This document shows, in pieces, positions 20,584 through 31,025 of a stretch of 38,975 nucleotides of DNA. Position 1 is the first letter of the stretch. Each line of letters starts with the position of its first letter. The notes below the pieces were generated by a model. The model had not been told where the DNA came from and ran no database searches. It saw only the letters and a program-made list of their open reading frames with translations. Made by a program: the position numbers and the translations under genes. Source of the DNA: a virus (Duplodnaviria; Caudoviricetes); the IMG/VR virus record IMGVR_UViG_3300005804_000002, positions 1-38,975 of that record; one strand, written 5' to 3'.

Positions 20584-21063
20584 TTATTGGGTTGTGGCCT
20601 TATTGTAGAAGTCTATCAGCCATTCACGCCCCTTGGCAGTCCATTTGATAGTTATGCCGAGTTCGCTTGCAACAATATAAACATAGCCATCGTTTTCAAG
20701 ATGCTTGTATTCAGTGCAAAGCTCATAGAATGCTAGTGGCTTTTCAATGACACCATGCTCAACAAGGAATTTGTTTAGCTTTACAGCGGTAGTGCCAAGC
20801 TCCTTGGCAATAGCTGTTGTTGTTACCAGCTCGCTAAAGTTGATCGAAGGCCTTGCCTTTGGCATTTCCTTTTTCTTTTTGTTTTCCTCGATCATGGCTT
20901 GAATTTTGGCCTTTTCCTCTTTGGTTAAGATATTGTAGCACTCTTCGCCATAATATTCGCTGCCATACCCTATGGCATTTTCAAGGTAGACCTTCTTTTT
21001 GCATCTGGCGCACACTACAACAGGCCGGACGCTTGAATGGTACTTCTTTTTCTTTCTTTGCAT
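20584..21063 (-). CDS. KilAC/ANT-like antirepressor domain protein with N-terminal CxxC
   Basis: TTTAIAKELGTTAVKLNKFLVEHGV...KWTAKGREWL; RBS AGGAGGT. Confidence 0.75.
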   Translation of the reverse strand: MQRKKKKYHSSVRPVVVCARCKKKVYLENAIGYGSEYYGEECYNILTKEEKAKIQAMIEENKKKKEMPKARPSINFSELVTTTAIAKELGTTAVKLNKFLVEHGVIEKPLAFYELCTEYKHLENDGYVYIVASELGITIKWTAKGREWLIDFYNKATTQ

Positions 21064-21067
21064 TTTA

Positions 21068-21898
21068 CTACCTCCTAGCGAATGCATTTTTAACATCGTC
21101 TTTTCTTGCATCTGTAATATGAGTGTACCTCTGAGTGGTAGTGATGCTCTTATGACCCAAGAAATGCTGGATCACTCGAAGATCAATGCCATTCTCAAGC
21201 AAATAGGTTGCCGATCCATGACGGAATGCATGGCAGTTCAGATCGAATCCGGCCTTCTGTGAATGCTTAGTGACTTGCCGTTGAACAACATTTTGACTGA
21301 TTCTACCATGAGCAGTATTAAACATTGCCTCGGAAGTATCCTCTCGGTCATGCTCAATGTATTTTTTTAGCAGTGCCACAGTGCGATCCTCTAGGCGCAC
21401 AATCCGTTCCTTTTTGTTTTTTGGGTCACGGACAATTATTTCTCCATTGGCAGCATTAAAGTCGGCCAGATCAAGGCCAACTGCCTCAGATACCCGAAGG
21501 CCACCAAAGAAGAGTAGGGAGATAATGGATTTGTATTTTAAGTCCTTGCATTTCTCAATTACAGCATCAACTTGATCTCTAGTGGCTATGGTTGGGATTT
21601 TGTCTTGTTGCTCGACAGACGAGATAATTGCTTGCAGTTCCTTGTAGCCGGGAATCTCGATTTCCTTAATGGTAATGAAGTTAAGGAATTGATTGAGAGT
21701 ACGCAGCCGAGCGTAGATTGTGTTTATAGAAGTCCCGGCCTTGCGCCATTCGCCGATCTTGCGATCTACATATGCCGGGGTCAAGTCCAAGTGCTGATTG
21801 GGAAACCAATACTTCATGTGGTAGCAGTATGTATTGTAAGTGTTTTCTGCTTTAGTGTTTTCAGTGCGTTGAAGAAATTCCTTGATAAGCTTATCCAT
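21068..21898 (-). CDS. XerC/D-like tyrosine recombinase
   Basis: GLRVSE, HAFRH, LGHKSITTTQRYTH. Confidence 0.92.
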   Translation of the reverse strand: MDKLIKEFLQRTENTKAENTYNTYCYHMKYWFPNQHLDLTPAYVDRKIGEWRKAGTSINTIYARLRTLNQFLNFITIKEIEIPGYKELQAIISSVEQQDKIPTIATRDQVDAVIEKCKDLKYKSIISLLFFGGLRVSEAVGLDLADFNAANGEIIVRDPKNKKERIVRLEDRTVALLKKYIEHDREDTSEAMFNTAHGRISQNVVQRQVTKHSQKAGFDLNCHAFRHGSATYLLENGIDLRVIQHFLGHKSITTTQRYTHITDARKDDVKNAFARR

Positions 21899-21958: not shown

Positions 21959-21986
21959 TAACAATATTAACTAATGCATATAAAAC

Positions 21987-22012
21987 GCCCAAGCTTGCAA
22001 GAGCCTGGGCGC
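21987..22012 (-). terminator. Terminator ending the leftward accessory block
   Basis: GCCCAGGCT...AGCTTGGGC stem followed by TTTT on minus strand. Confidence 0.7.
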
Positions 22013-22482: not shown

Positions 22483-22941
22483 TCAGCTAGCCCTCCTTAC
22501 AATATAGTCCACAGTGAATGTATCCTTCAGATACGCCTTTTTCTCTTCACCACAGTAGAAGAACTCCACGCCAAGATAATTGAATGAGGATTTTATGATC
22601 TTGCGTCCAGACCTCCAATAGGCAATAGAGCTATTTCCAGTAAGTTTATAGTGAAGTCGTGAAAAATCACGCAGTGAGCGAATCCCACAGATGTATGTTG
22701 TCATTATATGGCAAAGACCTGCAAGGCCATAACCTTCATATCTAGTATTTACCCCATGCGCCTTTAACTGGTCAATAGCCTCACGGATGCGATTATAATT
22801 GCGCTCGTTTTCGCTCATAGTCCCAAGTTGAAAACCAAGAAAACCGTTGGCCTCTTCCTTAACGCATACAAATTCAGCCATCAATATACCTCCGAACATG
22901 GTTTCTACAGTTATTATATACCCTAGAGTTATATTATTCAA
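22483..22941 (-). CDS. Hypothetical protein
   Basis: TTGA overlap with upstream gene. Confidence 0.55.
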   Translation of the reverse strand: MNNITLGYIITVETMFGGILMAEFVCVKEEANGFLGFQLGTMSENERNYNRIREAIDQLKAHGVNTRYEGYGLAGLCHIMTTYICGIRSLRDFSRLHYKLTGNSSIAYWRSGRKIIKSSFNYLGVEFFYCGEEKKAYLKDTFTVDYIVRRAS

Positions 22942-23405
22942 GAGATTCTTGGCTCTAGGCCATATGATTTAAGTAGGGAATCCCAGTATTTTGGATTGCC
23001 GATCCTCTTGCGATCAATGTGGCACAGGGCTGCAGTCCATGACTCAGAGCGCCACTGCGAATCGCTTATATCAAAGCCCATGTAGTCAGCACCAACCATC
23101 ATCCATTTATGGTGCAGGATTTGCGTACCCTTCACGATCTTTATGCTGCCATCTTGGCGAACATTTATATAGCGAGTCGGCAGCGGTTCTTGCGATATGT
23201 CGAAGTCGGGGCATTCGATGAAGGCAACATTGCCAGTTTTAGTATTGTACCGCACAAGGTTTGCTTGGCTTAGATCGTGTCCGGCATTTGTAGCTATGGC
23301 CTTGGCCTCAAGTATTCTCTCCAGTCCTTCAGAGGGCAGTGTTTGAATGTAGCTCATATGAATATAGACTTGCCCATGAATGTGTTTCCCGATCTTGTTT
23401 ATCAT
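22938..23405 (-). CDS. Protein resembling the non-catalytic domain of the DNA phosphorothioation-associated putative methyltransferase
   Basis: GK....VYIHxS...NLVRY....VAF..CPDFD...EP......QILHHK.MMV..DY pattern, recalled from the TIGR04096 family. Confidence 0.6.
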   Translation of the reverse strand: MINKIGKHIHGQVYIHMSYIQTLPSEGLERILEAKAIATNAGHDLSQANLVRYNTKTGNVAFIECPDFDISQEPLPTRYINVRQDGSIKIVKGTQILHHKWMMVGADYMGFDISDSQWRSESWTAALCHIDRKRIGNPKYWDSLLKSYGLEPRIS

Positions 23406-23424: not shown

Positions 23425-23491
23425 TTGGTCTGCCATCGTCAGAGCAGGGGAAACCAACCACCTGCTGACCGGGGATCATCCCGGTTTCGGC
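23425..23491 (-). ncRNA. Type II hammerhead ribozyme HH1
   Basis: gcc-GAAAC-stemIII-GUC-agcagg/ccugcu-CUGACGA-uggc on minus strand. Confidence 0.88.
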
Positions 23492-23706
23492 TAATTGGCT
23501 GCAGCAGCATTCCAGGCTTTGAGTGCAGCCCTCTTTGTGTCCTCCATTACGCAAGAGCTATCTAGCAGATCGGCAAAGTCGCAGGTATCAGGATCAGGAT
23601 GCTCGTACTGGTACTGATCCCTTTCATAGCCTTCAAACCTATAAAATGTCTTCAGTACTGGCAACTGACCGCAATATGGGCAGGGGAGGGTCTTAAACCT
23701 TGGCAT
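23491..23706 (-). CDS. Lar-family restriction alleviation-like protein
   Basis: LPCPYCG...TKRAALKAWN. Confidence 0.65.
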   Translation of the reverse strand: MPRFKTLPCPYCGQLPVLKTFYRFEGYERDQYQYEHPDPDTCDFADLLDSSCVMEDTKRAALKAWNAAAAN

Positions 23707-23926
23707 TTTCAACACCCCTTTCATATCCCAACATATAAGCAAAGCGCAGGGCGTTTAAGACAGGGCTTCTAGCTTCACCGCTAATGCCACCCTGCATGAT
23801 CGTTTCAAGAATGGCGAAGTTAATATCAGAGTCAGGGGAGAGGCCATGATGGTCTTCCATGCTTTTAATTGAGTTCTTAAAGGCAGGATTGTGCTTTTTC
23901 AAGAATGCAAGATCAATGTTTTTCAT
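23693..23926 (-). CDS. Hypothetical protein
   Basis: RBS GGAGGA; AYMLGYERG C-terminus. Confidence 0.65.
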   Translation of the reverse strand: MKNIDLAFLKKHNPAFKNSIKSMEDHHGLSPDSDINFAILETIMQGGISGEARSPVLNALRFAYMLGYERGVENAKV

Positions 23927-24030
23927 TGTTTAAGTCCTCCATTTTGTGAGTTTTTATGGGGTTTTTGCAGGTTACCTCGGTGTTTTCCCGGTGTTTTTGG
24001 GGTTTTATATGGGTTTATGGGGGGTTTCGA

Positions 24031-24873
24031 TTATGCGCCCTTCAGCGCAGCCATTTTTTCAGACAGCAGCCACAGGGCTTTGTTAAGCTTCACATTATTA
24101 TCAATACTGGTTATTTCTCTTGTCCTAGTGCGCTTGCCGTTGGCTGTTCTTCCATGCAGACCACCACGAATGACATTTTCTTGCACTCTGTTAAATACTG
24201 ACCACAGATCAGTGCTGCGATCTTCACGCCTCCTGCTAGTTAGTAGTTGATGGGCTGAAATAGGCGCATCGTCGGGGTTGTCATACTTAATGCTTAATGC
24301 TGCCTCGGCAAAAATGCGACTCTCAGGAAGCGAAAGGGTTGTGTCCTTCATAATCTGAATGGATTCTTGCACAGGTTCGGCGTTTTCAACGATTGTATAG
24401 GCTGCGTCGATCACATTATGGACAATATTGCCACGGTGTGGCACTTTCACATCTTCGTAGGTGTCGCCTGTAACCATCCCATTTTGGCAAACAAAGCGGA
24501 ATACACCTGCCATCATTTGATAGCTGCTTGTGCCATCATGTGAGTTAATGAGGATAATTTCAAAAGCTTCTTGGGCGGTTATTTGGCCTTCACGGCGTAG
24601 GCGCAGCATATGCTTGGTAAACTCGGATTTGCCTTCAATGCGTGACTTGCTTTGTACTGCCATAAACGGCTGAAACCCTTCACGGCGTAGGCCGTTTAAT
24701 ACTTCAATGGTTGGAATGTAGGTGTATCTTTCAGATCGTGACTCATGCGCCCCAATGGCAAAGATACTAGGGGCTGTTCTGAAAATTTCCTCGTCGGTCA
24801 GCGGTCTTTCAGCACGAATGTTAAAAGAATTTCTCCCAAAAGTAGTTGCTAAAGCCATTTTCAATTCCTCCAA
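24031..24873 (-). CDS. DUF932 family protein
   Basis: APSIFA..AHESRSERYTYIPT...FTKHMLRLRR..EIILINSHDGTSSYQM.AGVFRFVCQNG. Confidence 0.92.
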   Translation of the reverse strand: MEELKMALATTFGRNSFNIRAERPLTDEEIFRTAPSIFAIGAHESRSERYTYIPTIEVLNGLRREGFQPFMAVQSKSRIEGKSEFTKHMLRLRREGQITAQEAFEIILINSHDGTSSYQMMAGVFRFVCQNGMVTGDTYEDVKVPHRGNIVHNVIDAAYTIVENAEPVQESIQIMKDTTLSLPESRIFAEAALSIKYDNPDDAPISAHQLLTSRRREDRSTDLWSVFNRVQENVIRGGLHGRTANGKRTRTREITSIDNNVKLNKALWLLSEKMAALKGA

Positions 24874-24903
24874 TATTTGTGAATTATTTTAGAATGGTTT
24901 TAC

Positions 24904-25149
24904 TTACTTCAAGCTGTTAAGCTGCCGAAAGAATTTGTCTTGCATATTGCAATGGTATTCCCATTTTTTGGTGCATTTATCGTCGTCGTTGTAAACTGAT
25001 CCGACTTTATTATCCCAATGATCTGCCATAAGGGAATGATGTTCTACCATTTTTTGCAAGTATTCAGCTTGCTTTTCTGGATCGGCCTTCATGGCCTCGG
25101 CTTGATCTTTCGCAGCCTTGGCAAGTTGCAACAGGCTTTTTTCACGCAT
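24904..25149 (-). CDS. Hypothetical protein
   Basis: RBS GGAGGT; TAATG coupling. Confidence 0.6.
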   Translation of the reverse strand: MREKSLLQLAKAAKDQAEAMKADPEKQAEYLQKMVEHHSLMADHWDNKVGSVYNDDDKCTKKWEYHCNMQDKFFRQLNSLK

Positions 25150-25256
25150 TACCAATGACCTCCATTTTTAAAGTAGCGATCCCAGGCTGCTTTTCTCCGT
25201 CTTTCACGGCGCACCGCTTGAATATAGTTAATTACCTTTAGAATTGCATTAGCCAT
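25149..25256 (-). CDS. Micro-protein (35 aa, basic)
   Basis: RBS GGAGG; MANAILKVINYIQAVRRERRRK. Confidence 0.55.
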   Translation of the reverse strand: MANAILKVINYIQAVRRERRRKAAWDRYFKNGGHW

Positions 25257-25347
25257 TTTTCTTCGCCTCCGTTGCTTTTTTCTTGAGTGCTAAAACAGTT
25301 AAGAGAGCAAGTTGCTCACGCAGGGGCATTTTTCGATTTTTACGCAT
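25249..25347 (-). CDS. Micro-protein (32 aa)
   Basis: Overlaps both neighbours; MRKNRKMPLREQLALL. Confidence 0.45.
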   Translation of the reverse strand: MRKNRKMPLREQLALLTVLALKKKATEAKKNG

Positions 25348-25441
25348 GAAATCCACCGTCCTTTTCAGATTTATAAACTGTGTAGGCCATAAGGCAAAAC
25401 ATTGACCAAATACCAAATACACCTAAAATCCAATCTTCCAT
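25340..25441 (-). CDS. Hydrophobic micro-protein (33 aa)
   Basis: RBS AGGAGG; MEDWILGVFGIWSMFCLMAY. Confidence 0.55.
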   Translation of the reverse strand: MEDWILGVFGIWSMFCLMAYTVYKSEKDGGFHA

Positions 25442-25545
25442 GAGTGCCAGCCTCCTAAAAATTGATCTTCAGAGCTTATTTTGTGGGCGTTTATCGTCCA
25501 CCCCTAGAAGGCCTGTGTAAGTCACAGACCCTCTAGGCGTAGGCC

Positions 25546-26091
25546 TTAAACGGCCTTTGCAAGCTTGCAGCATTTCGGCAGCTTGGCAATGATTACGCCA
25601 TTTTTAACGGCTACAGAATCAAAGTGCTTGGCGATTTCAAGCAGGTAGCTTTTCGTTGTCCTGTTTTCCTGCCATCCCTTGGATGTCTCGCAGCCATTGC
25701 CGGACTTATTACCTTCATAGATCGTGAAATAGGCGACCCCATCGGGCTTTATGGCTTGTGACACGGTGAAAATAACTTGTTCTCTGGCCTCGGCCTCGGC
25801 GATCACATTTAAAACATTGCTACAGGTGGCAGTGTCGGCAGGGGTTGCCTTAAGCCTTGTGGTTACCTGCTCGTTATGGCTTTGCGTCCTGTTGTAGGGA
25901 TCGAAAATCAGGTTTTCAACGCCTACAGAGGCGAGAAAGGCCGTTGCGTTATCGAATTTACCGCCTCCAATATCGGCATTTACTGTTCCCGGCCTCCATG
26001 CGACTTTAGAGAACACCGCAGGGAGCTTGTGGGAATTAATGGATGTTTCAGCAGAATCAAATTTTTGTGCTACAGTCTTGAAAGCTTGCAT
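25546..26091 (-). CDS. Small class I SAM-dependent methyltransferase
   Basis: ADIGGG motif I, FDPY, ADTATCSNVLNVI, KPDGVAYFTIY. Confidence 0.85.
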   Translation of the reverse strand: MQAFKTVAQKFDSAETSINSHKLPAVFSKVAWRPGTVNADIGGGKFDNATAFLASVGVENLIFDPYNRTQSHNEQVTTRLKATPADTATCSNVLNVIAEAEAREQVIFTVSQAIKPDGVAYFTIYEGNKSGNGCETSKGWQENRTTKSYLLEIAKHFDSVAVKNGVIIAKLPKCCKLAKAV

Positions 26092-26152
26092 ATAAATTCC
26101 CTCCGTAAATACAATTCATATATTGTGCATAAAACTGGGTATAGCAAAGCAG

Positions 26153-26228
26153 GGCTTGCCATCATCAGGCCACAAGTTGCCATCTTGCGACGATACCGGG
26201 AGGCCATGAGGCCTCGCAGTATTTCGGC
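26153..26228 (-). ncRNA. Type II hammerhead ribozyme HH2
   Basis: gcc-GAAAU-stemIII-AUC-gucgcaag/cuuguggc-CUGAUGA-uggc. Confidence 0.85.
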
Positions 26229-26234
26229 TAATTT

Positions 26235-26414
26235 TTAGTCTTCGACTTGGATTTCCCATGTCCAACGGCTTAATGATACAGAATACCCTTTGCATTCCAT
26301 CATGTCTTTAAAGGCCTCGGCTTGCTGCTTGTCATCAAAAAAGGAATGATTGATTTTATTACCTACAGCAGCCCCTTCAACGGTGGTTACTCGATACATT
26401 AGACGCTTGCTCAT
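26235..26414 (-). CDS. Hypothetical protein (59 aa)
   Basis: RBS AAGGAGG; MSKRLMYRVTTVEG. Confidence 0.6.
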   Translation of the reverse strand: MSKRLMYRVTTVEGAAVGNKINHSFFDDKQQAEAFKDMMECKGYSVSLSRWTWEIQVED

Positions 26415-26454
26415 TTTTTTAATGCCTCCTTATAGTGTGTGTGTTTTAATGCCT

Positions 26455-26727
26455 TTATATTTCATCTAAATTGATCGGCTCAACATAATTGCCCATATTA
26501 TCCCAATAACCTATGAGCAAAATATCAATTTCAAGATCGATCAAAGAGGGGATGCCATAGGCCTTTTTATAGCCTTCAACATCAAAGCGAATAGGCCAAT
26601 CTTCAAAACCGTCCCGGCATTCATCGCAATTGCAATCATGCCCGTAAATCTGCAATGCTTCGCCTGTGGTGGCATTTACATCAATAGCCCCATGCGATCC
26701 GCTAACGGTGAAAATATCCATCTTCAA
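26455..26727 (-). CDS. Acidic hypothetical protein
   Basis: RBS AGGAGG with TTG start; CNCDEC. Confidence 0.65.
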   Translation of the reverse strand: MKMDIFTVSGSHGAIDVNATTGEALQIYGHDCNCDECRDGFEDWPIRFDVEGYKKAYGIPSLIDLEIDILLIGYWDNMGNYVEPINLDEI

Positions 26728-26746
26728 AGCCTCCTGCTGTTTATAT

Positions 26747-26818
26747 TGGCTTGTCTCATCAGGCCGGGGGTTGCCATCCCATCGGCGACCGTCGCCCCTT
26801 TAGGGGCTAGGTTTCGAC
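26747..26818 (-). ncRNA. Type II hammerhead ribozyme HH3
   Basis: guc-GAAAC-stemIII-GUC-gccg/cggc-CUGAUGA-gac. Confidence 0.9.
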
Positions 26819-26851: not shown

Positions 26852-27433
26852 TTAGTGCTGATCAAAAATTACAGCTTGGCCTTTTTTCAAATTCCAGCAA
26901 ACCTTGCAATCTTTGCAGCTACCTGCACAATCTACAGCATTCGCCGGGGTTTCCCATGTTTCGCCTTTGGCTCTTACAATGGCCTTTGGCAGATCGTCGC
27001 CCCATGTATATTCGCCCCATTGGCTAGCTACAATATTCAAGTTTTCCGGCAAGTCGCTGAAATCTAAGCTGCTGTTCTTGGTAAAAGCTAGGAATTTCAC
27101 AGCAGGAAACATTTTTGCAATTGCCTTCATGCCTTCTAGGTAGCTTTGCGAAGGAATATCACCTGCAGAATGCCATCTGAAAAATTCCATCTTTTTGGTG
27201 CGTTGGATCGTGTCGGCGATCCCTTCAAAATATGCCTTTTCGTTATCCTTCAATAATTCCCAATTACCGCCCCATGCCTCACGAACATTTTTATATTGTC
27301 TCCATGCCTTCATAGCATAGCAGTCTTTAGCGCAAGGAATGCCTTTTGGGCAGCTAATCACAGGAGGCAGGTTAACATTCATAATTTTACCAATTTTGCT
27401 ATTCCCTTTTGAAACATTTACGCAGTTAGTCAT
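26852..27433 (-). CDS. Gp88-like Fe-S/radical-SAM-like phage protein
   Basis: GNSKIG..NLPP..SCPx4Cx3CYA...FRWHSAGD...AFTK...CAGSCKDCKVCW. Confidence 0.8.
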   Translation of the reverse strand: MTNCVNVSKGNSKIGKIMNVNLPPVISCPKGIPCAKDCYAMKAWRQYKNVREAWGGNWELLKDNEKAYFEGIADTIQRTKKMEFFRWHSAGDIPSQSYLEGMKAIAKMFPAVKFLAFTKNSSLDFSDLPENLNIVASQWGEYTWGDDLPKAIVRAKGETWETPANAVDCAGSCKDCKVCWNLKKGQAVIFDQH

Positions 27434-27481
27434 TTTGATCAATTCCTTTCGTTTTGTTTTGTTTTCTTTTCTACTATATAT

Positions 27482-27508
27482 ATTCGCCGTTAAGTTATAA
27501 ATTCCTTC
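27482..27508 (-). promoter_or_regulatory. Sigma-H-type promoter
   Basis: GAAGGAATT-N11-GGCGAAT matches RNAGGAWWW-N11/12-RNNGAAT. Confidence 0.6.
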
Positions 27509-29183: not shown

Positions 29184-29376
29184 TAATATCACTCCTTAAT
29201 CTGTTTTGATCATATTTTAGCATTGAATTATTAGTAAATTCAAACTCAAATAGGCTGAATTATGTTCAATAGGCATAAAATATGTGCTGTTTTTAAATTT
29301 TTTTTGCGAAAATCATAAAAATAGTGCATAGCCTCCCTAAGAATATATATATGAAAAGACTTTCGGGAGAAAGGAT

Positions 29377-30813: not shown

Positions 30814-30961
30814 TGGCACTCAAAAAGGAACAAAAGTACTTCTCAATGGCACTGAAATACGGTGCTTTGGGCTTGTGTTCCGTGGTGATCGGATCAATGG
30901 ATATGAAATTACATTTGATCTGACTGAGCCAGAAGAGGGCGATGCTCAAACGGGGCGATGA
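30773..30961 (+). CDS. Hypothetical protein
   Basis: 62-aa ORF; stop codon overlaps tRNA 5' end. Confidence 0.5.
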   Translation: MARPQKTKIEIMSDGTQKGTKVLLNGTEIRCFGLVFRGDRINGYEITFDLTEPEEGDAQTGR

Positions 30962-31025
30962 TGTAATGGTAGCATAACTGACTCCAAATCAGTTTGTCTT
31001 GGTTCAATTCCAAGTCGCTTTGCCA
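30952..31025 (+). tRNA. tRNA-Trp (CCA)
   Basis: D stem ATGT/GCAT, anticodon arm ACTGA-CTCCAAA-TCAGT, T arm CTTGG-TTCAATT-CCAAG, ends G-CCA. Confidence 0.88.

Follow-up and report, generated by a model that had tools for sequence, protein, structure and literature searches.

The window analysed here is the whole 38,975-base contig of a temperate phage (IMGVR_UViG_3300005804_000002), and it carries three type II hammerhead ribozymes within 3.4 kb of the minus strand. These are HH3 (26747-26818), HH2 (26153-26228) and HH1 (23425-23491). They are located in a minus-strand block that is opposed to the direction of the other genes, and all three lie in sense orientation to the open reading frames (ORFs), each after a stop codon and ahead of the next ribosome site. 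The motifs are a genuine, well-formed type II hammerhead trio, as an earlier note on this DNA had claimed from their full cores and three stems.

The CUGANGA core, the GAAA and an NUH cleavage triplet are present in all three motifs. Loops close stems I and III and stem II is open, with the pairs G10.1-C11.1 and A15.1-U16.1. HH3 has a GUC triplet, a stem II of 3 bp and internal loops in stems I and III. The triplet is also GUC in HH1, and HH2 has AUC together with an 8-bp stem I and a U15.2-A16.2 pair, the compensated change that had been pointed out before. A single extra U is found between A9 and G10.1 in HH1 and HH2. The pairing of loop I with the 3' tail, likewise proposed earlier for each motif, can be read from the sequence as a pseudoknot of 4 bp in HH3 (UGGC/GCCA), 3 bp in HH2 (GGC/GCC, next to a U-C mismatch) and 6 bp in HH1, where one pair is G-U and a two-sided C-G to U-A change separates it from the subfamily described below. 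The pseudoknot of HH2 is thereby shorter than the 4 bp typical in PMC3088659. The descriptor for type II hammerheads places the predicted cuts, between C17 and N1.1, at 26787/26786 in HH3, 26192/26191 in HH2 and 23467/23466 in HH1, the same positions as proposed before.

HH2 and HH3 are fully intergenic, as had been stated for all three, but HH1 shares one base with the upstream gene: the first base of its stem II is the G of the TAG stop codon (23491). HH3 begins 33 nt downstream of its stop codon. The similarity of HH2 and HH3 is limited to a 23-nt stretch at 83%, with different stems, and the three copies in the window have at most 19 of 23 bases in common. DNA run X1, possibly the source of the contig, matches the ribozyme region without differences, gaps or joints.

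The descriptor was run on both strands of the whole window and matched these three motifs only. Dinucleotide shuffles (200) gave a mean of 0.025 loose matches per window and no strict match (0/200). The minimum-energy structure from RNAfold is the three-stem fold for each isolated motif (3/3). Comparison with the Rfam family Hammerhead_II (RF02276), which the earlier note had suggested as a check, was passed by HH1 at 42.3 bits (gathering score 37); HH3 falls below threshold with 23.5 bits (E 0.46) and HH2 is unlisted up to E 5. Because the descriptor missed three of the five hammerheads of a related locus, L042, a covariance model was also built from 33 related motifs, HH1-HH3 included by construction. 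No fourth hammerhead was found in the window by Rfam, by the descriptor or by the 33-motif model with filters off; the next-best match of this model (16.7 bits) is within the ribonucleotide reductase gene and the core is absent. Twister, twister-sister and pistol gave no match reaching the Rfam threshold in the window. The tract at 23940-24030 (minus), directly after the stop codon of the DUF932 gene, opens with a sequence resembling a type II hammerhead's 5' arm (GAAAC and a C-run after two bases; compare L116, position 3998) and then becomes a G-poor, unstructured A/C repeat. It is possibly a decayed fourth ribozyme, with chance as the alternative; a twister often occupies the corresponding place in relatives.

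The accessory block and its genes

The putative transcript start of the block is a weak promoter-like site ahead of the first gene (27473-27501, minus; 9/12 in a consensus scan), and the likely 3' end is an intrinsic-terminator-like hairpin (21985-22012, minus) with an 11-bp stem and a T-rich tail. The window contains 35 promoter-like sites, against 25.0 +/- 4.8 in shuffles. One of them, found by the same kind of scan at 22941-22913 (minus) and repeated at 21958-21929, may subdivide the block below HH1, and the single operon of the earlier note is in this respect an inferred unit. From 27501-27473 to 22012-21985 the predicted pieces would measure about 684, 595, 2725 and 1492 nt, with the outermost ends set by consensus only. 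The two internal pieces agree with the sizes of about 0.6 and 2.7 kb given before.

Piece 1 encodes a GP88-family protein of 193 amino acids (26852-27433, minus; PF17338, E 1e-23). Piece 2 (26192-26786, minus; 595 nt) contains two small entries of the ORF list, 26721-26455 (88 amino acids) and 26414-26235 (59 amino acids), for which no family was found in PHROGs, Pfam, NCBIfam or PADLOC. Eight listed ORFs are found in piece 3 (23467-26191, minus; 2725 nt). Among them are an S-adenosylmethionine (SAM)-methyltransferase-like ORF (26091-25546, minus), assigned through matches of PF13489 to many homologues and with no solved structure found by sequence, the DUF932 gene (24858-24031, minus; PF06067, E 2e-52) and a Lar-like ORF (23724-23491, minus; TIGR03655, E 6e-5, below cutoff). 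The remainder are four short ORFs and one of 77 amino acids. Directly after the methyltransferase-like gene is a perfect 15-bp hairpin with G-U pairs (25503-25537, minus; z -4.97 for a 125-nt stretch, 0/200 shuffles). It has no U-tail and a weak sub-threshold Rfam match to Mahella-1, and it may subdivide piece 3 as an RNase III site or as a stabiliser. The first gene of piece 4 (22938-23405, minus; phrog_16075) encodes 155 amino acids and resembles the C-terminal part of a phosphorothioation-associated putative methyltransferase family (TIGR04096, E 1e-7, below cutoff), the match spanning profile positions 322-467 of 478. Near the end of the block is a short second tyrosine recombinase that resembles XerA/XerD with scores below cutoffs (21068-21898, minus) and closes the block together with an Ant/KilAC-domain gene (20584-21111, minus) that has its own promoter-like site.

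Protein family scans took in 50 of the 192 ORFs of this incomplete contig. The profiles identified integrase, repressor, ERF, primase-helicase, ribonucleotide reductase, terminase and portal, as expected for a temperate phage; the integrases are at 285-1589 and 21068-21898. A tRNA gene lies at 30952-31022 (plus), between phoH and the terminase gene. The best matches of the terminase are 33-39% identical and belong to Mu-like phages of mixed hosts, yet the phage uses a tyrosine integrase. Integrase homologues reach at most 34% identity and those of PhoH about 30%, and the comparisons of these three proteins do not resolve the host. Ahead of the terminase block, 39 bases at 29316-29354 also occur in another contig of run X1 with similar depth; they may be a late promoter that is repeated in the phage's missing part.

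Related motifs and other ribozymes at gene borders

A pattern based on HH2 gave 74 viral and 29 genome loci. The 33-motif model matches 54 of the viral and 27 of the genome loci, which belong to the same subfamily as HH2, and the remaining 20 and 2 pattern matches were excluded as chance. Many of the viral loci represent one phage family, and about 30 distinct clusters are found. The genome loci are for the most part (20/29) from what are taken here to be Clostridia-type taxa. Rfam called type II hammerheads in 3 of 33 related loci and the subfamily is therefore under-annotated.

Several copies per locus are found in L042 (five), L116 (three) and L035, L040, L104 and L115 (two each), and in L015 a hammerhead occurs together with a pistol. 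The five type II hammerheads of L042 (3459-6060, minus) are each placed between a stop codon and a ribosome site and separate small genes of no known family. In several loci of Clostridia type (L012, L020, L030, L034, L098 and L099) a second shared motif seems to follow the hammerhead tail and widens the gap to the next gene; L012 also holds a RAGATH-8 RNA.

The alignment of the 33 motifs has two-sided changes in 13 of 19 pairs, and 87.6% of its cells pair, compared with 70.4% in shuffles and 24-33% in slid controls; the rows were selected for pairing and loop sequence, which favours the stems and is partly circular, and variation in the pseudoknot is confined to one or two rows, HH1 included. 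The proteins flanking the related motifs were picked automatically (88), and 85 were scanned after three near-duplicates had been dropped. A Pfam match was obtained for 17 of the 85 with no family repeated, and the matches include AcrIC5, a sub-cutoff ArdA and DUF932.

Self-cleaving motifs of other classes are found around relatives of the DUF932 gene. Seven of 21 loci with such a relative, some of them close kin and thus not independent, carry Rfam-grade ribozymes, with nine matches that are all in sense to the gene and belong to twister-P5, twister-sister, pistol and type III hammerhead. The positions are 2609-3609 in L083, 6838-6895 in L075, 2153-2213 in L093, 2324-3144 in L094, 5611-5665 in L084, 5684-5764 in L085 and 8286-8363 in L086. 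Twister-P5 begins at most 5 nt from the DUF932 stop codon in four of the 21 loci, and in L083 the gene is bracketed by two twisters. The DUF932 genes of L084 and L085 are similar, but one has a type III hammerhead and the other a pistol upstream. GP88-like genes also occur in L086 and L089, and strong hairpins follow many other DUF932 stop codons.

Processing of the transcript and alternative explanations

The anatomy of the motifs, together with homologous arrangements that have been tested (PMC3088659), gives good support to protein-free cutting of the polycistronic mRNA into four pieces, as predicted in the earlier note. The prediction is not a new idea: it is a published hypothesis from 2011, and the layout has been known in phages since then. 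According to the same source, three tandem sets were all cleaved in vitro, a triple set around ardA was also active in E. coli, activity was seen in 14 of the 18 consensus hammerheads that were assayed, and the pseudoknot between loop and tail gives fast cleavage (PMC3088659). The three hammerheads of the window likely cut the nascent mRNA, with neither protein nor ligand, into four linear, hairpin-capped pieces (probability roughly 0.75).

The minus-strand polycistronic transcript would be made through all three sites and be cut during transcription, constitutively, at HH3, HH2 and HH1. Hammerhead cleavage takes place 3' of the NUH triplet and leaves 2',3'-cyclic phosphate and 5'-OH ends (PMC6765202). 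As a consequence of the type II stem order both ends of each piece would be hairpins, each downstream piece starting with the stem I hairpin at base 1 and each upstream piece ending with the stem III hairpin; base 1 of the downstream pieces is paired in stem I. The most likely products are linear, hairpin-capped 5'-OH mRNAs from ribozymes that would cut constitutively. Each ribozyme would then act both as punctuation and as an integral end cap, making a gene group independent of the decay of its neighbours, and each group would gain a standard 5' end, as with the engineered insulator RiboJ, which about doubles mRNA, possibly owing to the hairpin at its end (PMC6206723). Selection would act on the cut at the gene boundary and not on this particular motif, because related genes use twister, twister-sister, pistol and type III hammerheads in such slots. 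The genes served by the ribozymes are inferred, with less confidence, to be early host-takeover or anti-defence genes.

Several observations weigh against this interpretation. The pseudoknot of HH2 has only 3 bp, and shortening of the pseudoknot lowered the rate 20- to more than 100-fold in a tested ribozyme (PMC3088659). In ViennaRNA ensembles with flanks, a model that leaves pseudoknots and co-transcriptional folding outside, the pairing probability of stem II is 0.00-0.17, that of stem I in HH2 drops to 0.07-0.40 when 60 nt upstream are included, and that of stem I in HH3 goes down to 0.1 with 150-nt flanks. HH1 alone is passed by Rfam. The closeness of stop codons, which favours the interpretation, has a limit too: a same-strand stop codon is no more than 12 nt from the GAAA in 20 of 31 clusters, compared with 4.7% and 6.5% in controls that are lenient and include antisense positions, and the same holds for 37 of 48 representatives picked by hand (19 of the 48 at no more than 3 nt), but tight gene packing in phages would by itself place stop codons near any intergenic element. 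In B. subtilis, RNase J1 degrades the 5'-OH product left by the glmS ribozyme, so a cut can also destabilise (bioRxiv 2023.03.12.532304). The anti-defence label, finally, rests on sub-cutoff matches, PADLOC gave no defence-system match (0/16), and one AcrIC5 and one sub-cutoff ArdA are found among the 17 Pfam matches to the 85 flanking proteins.

A further role, compatible with the cutting of mRNA, is that the ribozymes are also the borders of portable gene cassettes, in which flanking genes are swapped by recombination in or next to the motif. In L002, L003, L004, L022 and L066 pairwise similarity stops at the ribozyme edges or at the cleavage triplet, with different genes on either side. L002 and L066 are 99.3% identical along 2715 bp, a stretch that runs to 10 nt past the ribozyme's 5' edge, and diverge upstream of it; the 414 bp common to L004 and L003 stop at the tail, and L004 and L022 have locally no more than 45 bp in common, which reach from the cleavage triplet as far as the tail. 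These breaks, in one large family, point to gene exchange at such borders, as does the lack of a recurring Pfam family among the 17 annotated flanking proteins; the phage moreover encodes an ERF single-strand annealing protein. An incoming gene would inherit the cut site, the cap hairpin and the ribosome site. The swap pattern is known from that one phage family, though, and the same pattern would be expected of any intergenic element that is conserved within a variable region. The 19 of 23 bases shared by HH1-HH3 offer little for recombination. No relative of the window's own block was found for comparison: queries with the GP88 and methyltransferase-like proteins gave no confirmed locus in viral contigs, and a blastn search of phage records yielded nothing but short matches to DUF932 and a single match of 41 bases. 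The border role is a tentative addition, less likely than not. The same tentative standing applies to its extended form, portable self-capping cassettes in which a ribozyme of any self-cleaving class sits behind a stop codon, gives the gene its own hairpin-capped 5'-OH mRNA and marks where anti-defence genes are swapped.

The main rival to capping is decay. The cut could be a signal that feeds the 5'-OH pieces to RNase J1, as for glmS, so that accessory genes are expressed briefly or stepped down along the operon. In addition to the degradation of the glmS product by RNase J1, B. subtilis removes two bases from 5'-OH ends (bioRxiv 2023.03.12.532304). The ribozyme subfamily is found mostly in genomes presumed to be of Clostridia type (20/29). 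Such genomes are expected to have RNase J. RNase J1 requires a single-stranded 5' end, and here stem I pairs the first base of every downstream piece. Decay is on balance an unlikely purpose of the cuts.

It is quite improbable that cleavage is a translation-coupled switch, in which cutting depends on a ribosome at the upstream stop codon or on an alternative fold with the upstream coding sequence, or in which cutting makes the following ribosome site accessible. In HH1 and in 19 of 48 relatives the stop codon touches stem II or overlaps it, and the minimum-energy structure of HH2 is misfolded when upstream coding sequence is included, but HH3 lies 33 nt below its stop codon. Interference from upstream sequence equals that of shuffled controls (z +1.8 for HH1, -0.4 for HH2 and -0.7 for HH3; mean z 0.07 over 48 motifs). 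The opening energy of the ribosome site goes from 8.15 to 8.81, from 6.59 to 6.2 and from 5.78 to 6.6 kcal/mol on cutting at the three sites, a change of less than 1 kcal/mol in each. On the 48-motif interference test and the opening energies, gating by alternative folding and cleavage-gated ribosome access are rejected, and the small shifts in energy give no support to the separately tuned translation suggested in the earlier note.

Ligation of the internal pieces into circular mRNAs by host RtcB or by the ribozyme itself, the other outcome suggested there, is the least probable of the alternatives: the end chemistry left by hammerheads is established to suit RtcB, but circular and spliced products were looked for in tandem sets and none were detected (PMC3088659), the 5'-OH is base paired and both piece ends are buried in hairpins, the two halves are joined by 3 bp only, which disfavours ligation by the ribozyme, and no RtcB was found among the 50 scanned ORFs of the 192 in this incomplete contig. 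A circle of the 2725-nt piece is unlikely because its joint would rebuild a complete hammerhead and reopen. The joint of the 595-nt piece has an A-C mismatch in stem II and no hammerhead in its minimum-energy fold, so that a circle could stay closed, but a circular mRNA sealed in this way by a crippled hammerhead is equally improbable.

Comparison with known systems

Differing stability or translation of the pieces has been proposed, several ribozyme classes share gene neighbours, and why phages cut the messages of accessory genes with ribozymes is called open in two reviews (PMC6765202, PMC6155905). In a search of mostly open literature, no paper turned up that resolves the function or reports swaps at ribozymes; the main text of the leading-region paper PMC11541004 contains neither 'ribozyme' nor 'DUF9'. 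The present locus is one more clean example of a known arrangement, in an uncultured phage that is no easier to test than the examples from 2011. The additions are modest: a hammerhead subfamily that Rfam largely overlooks, a tight stop-codon geometry, the interchange of ribozyme classes around DUF932 genes and, in related phages, gene swaps whose breaks fall at the ribozyme.

Retrozymes and viroid-like circular RNAs likewise have an RNA unit bounded by two hammerheads (PMC6155905). They are non-coding or infectious circles with direct repeats of one ribozyme bounding the unit, unlike HH1-HH3, which are three divergent motifs around ordinary phage genes and not direct-repeat copies. With RF02276 the three motifs share the core, the stem order and the pseudoknot, HH2 and HH3 with scores below threshold. 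Twister, twister-sister and pistol (PMC6765202) have other folds and appear, here around DUF932 genes, as interchangeable self-cleaving motifs at phage gene boundaries. RiboJ (PMC6206723) shares the standard, hairpin-capped 5' end ahead of a ribosome site after self-cleavage; it is synthetic and placed after a promoter, whereas HH1-HH3 are natural and intercistronic, and the likeness is a working analogy and not one of membership.

The published counterparts are the prophage clusters of Clostridium scindens and Azorhizobium caulinodans and the triple set around ardA in Agrobacterium tumefaciens (PMC3088659). A search for the motif strings in 11 of the 12 supplementary files of that paper gave no match; sequences in the figures are broken up, so this does not imply that the subfamily is absent. 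It is common in prophages for several hammerheads to border a single gene or a short block, and processing into operon- or gene-length mRNAs was proposed for them (PMC3088659). The present set differs in phage and genes, in that all three motifs are type II and one piece is long (2.7 kb, eight ORFs), and in being known from sequence alone. It agrees with the clusters in that several sense hammerheads, here three within 3.4 kb of one strand, lie between small accessory genes and flank short blocks in a temperate phage. Integrase genes are nearby, here at 285-1589 and 21068-21898 in a contig with repressor, terminase and portal. Further common features are the predicted cutting of a polycistronic RNA, the type II fold with a pseudoknot between loop I and the 3' tail, and anti-restriction-like neighbours.

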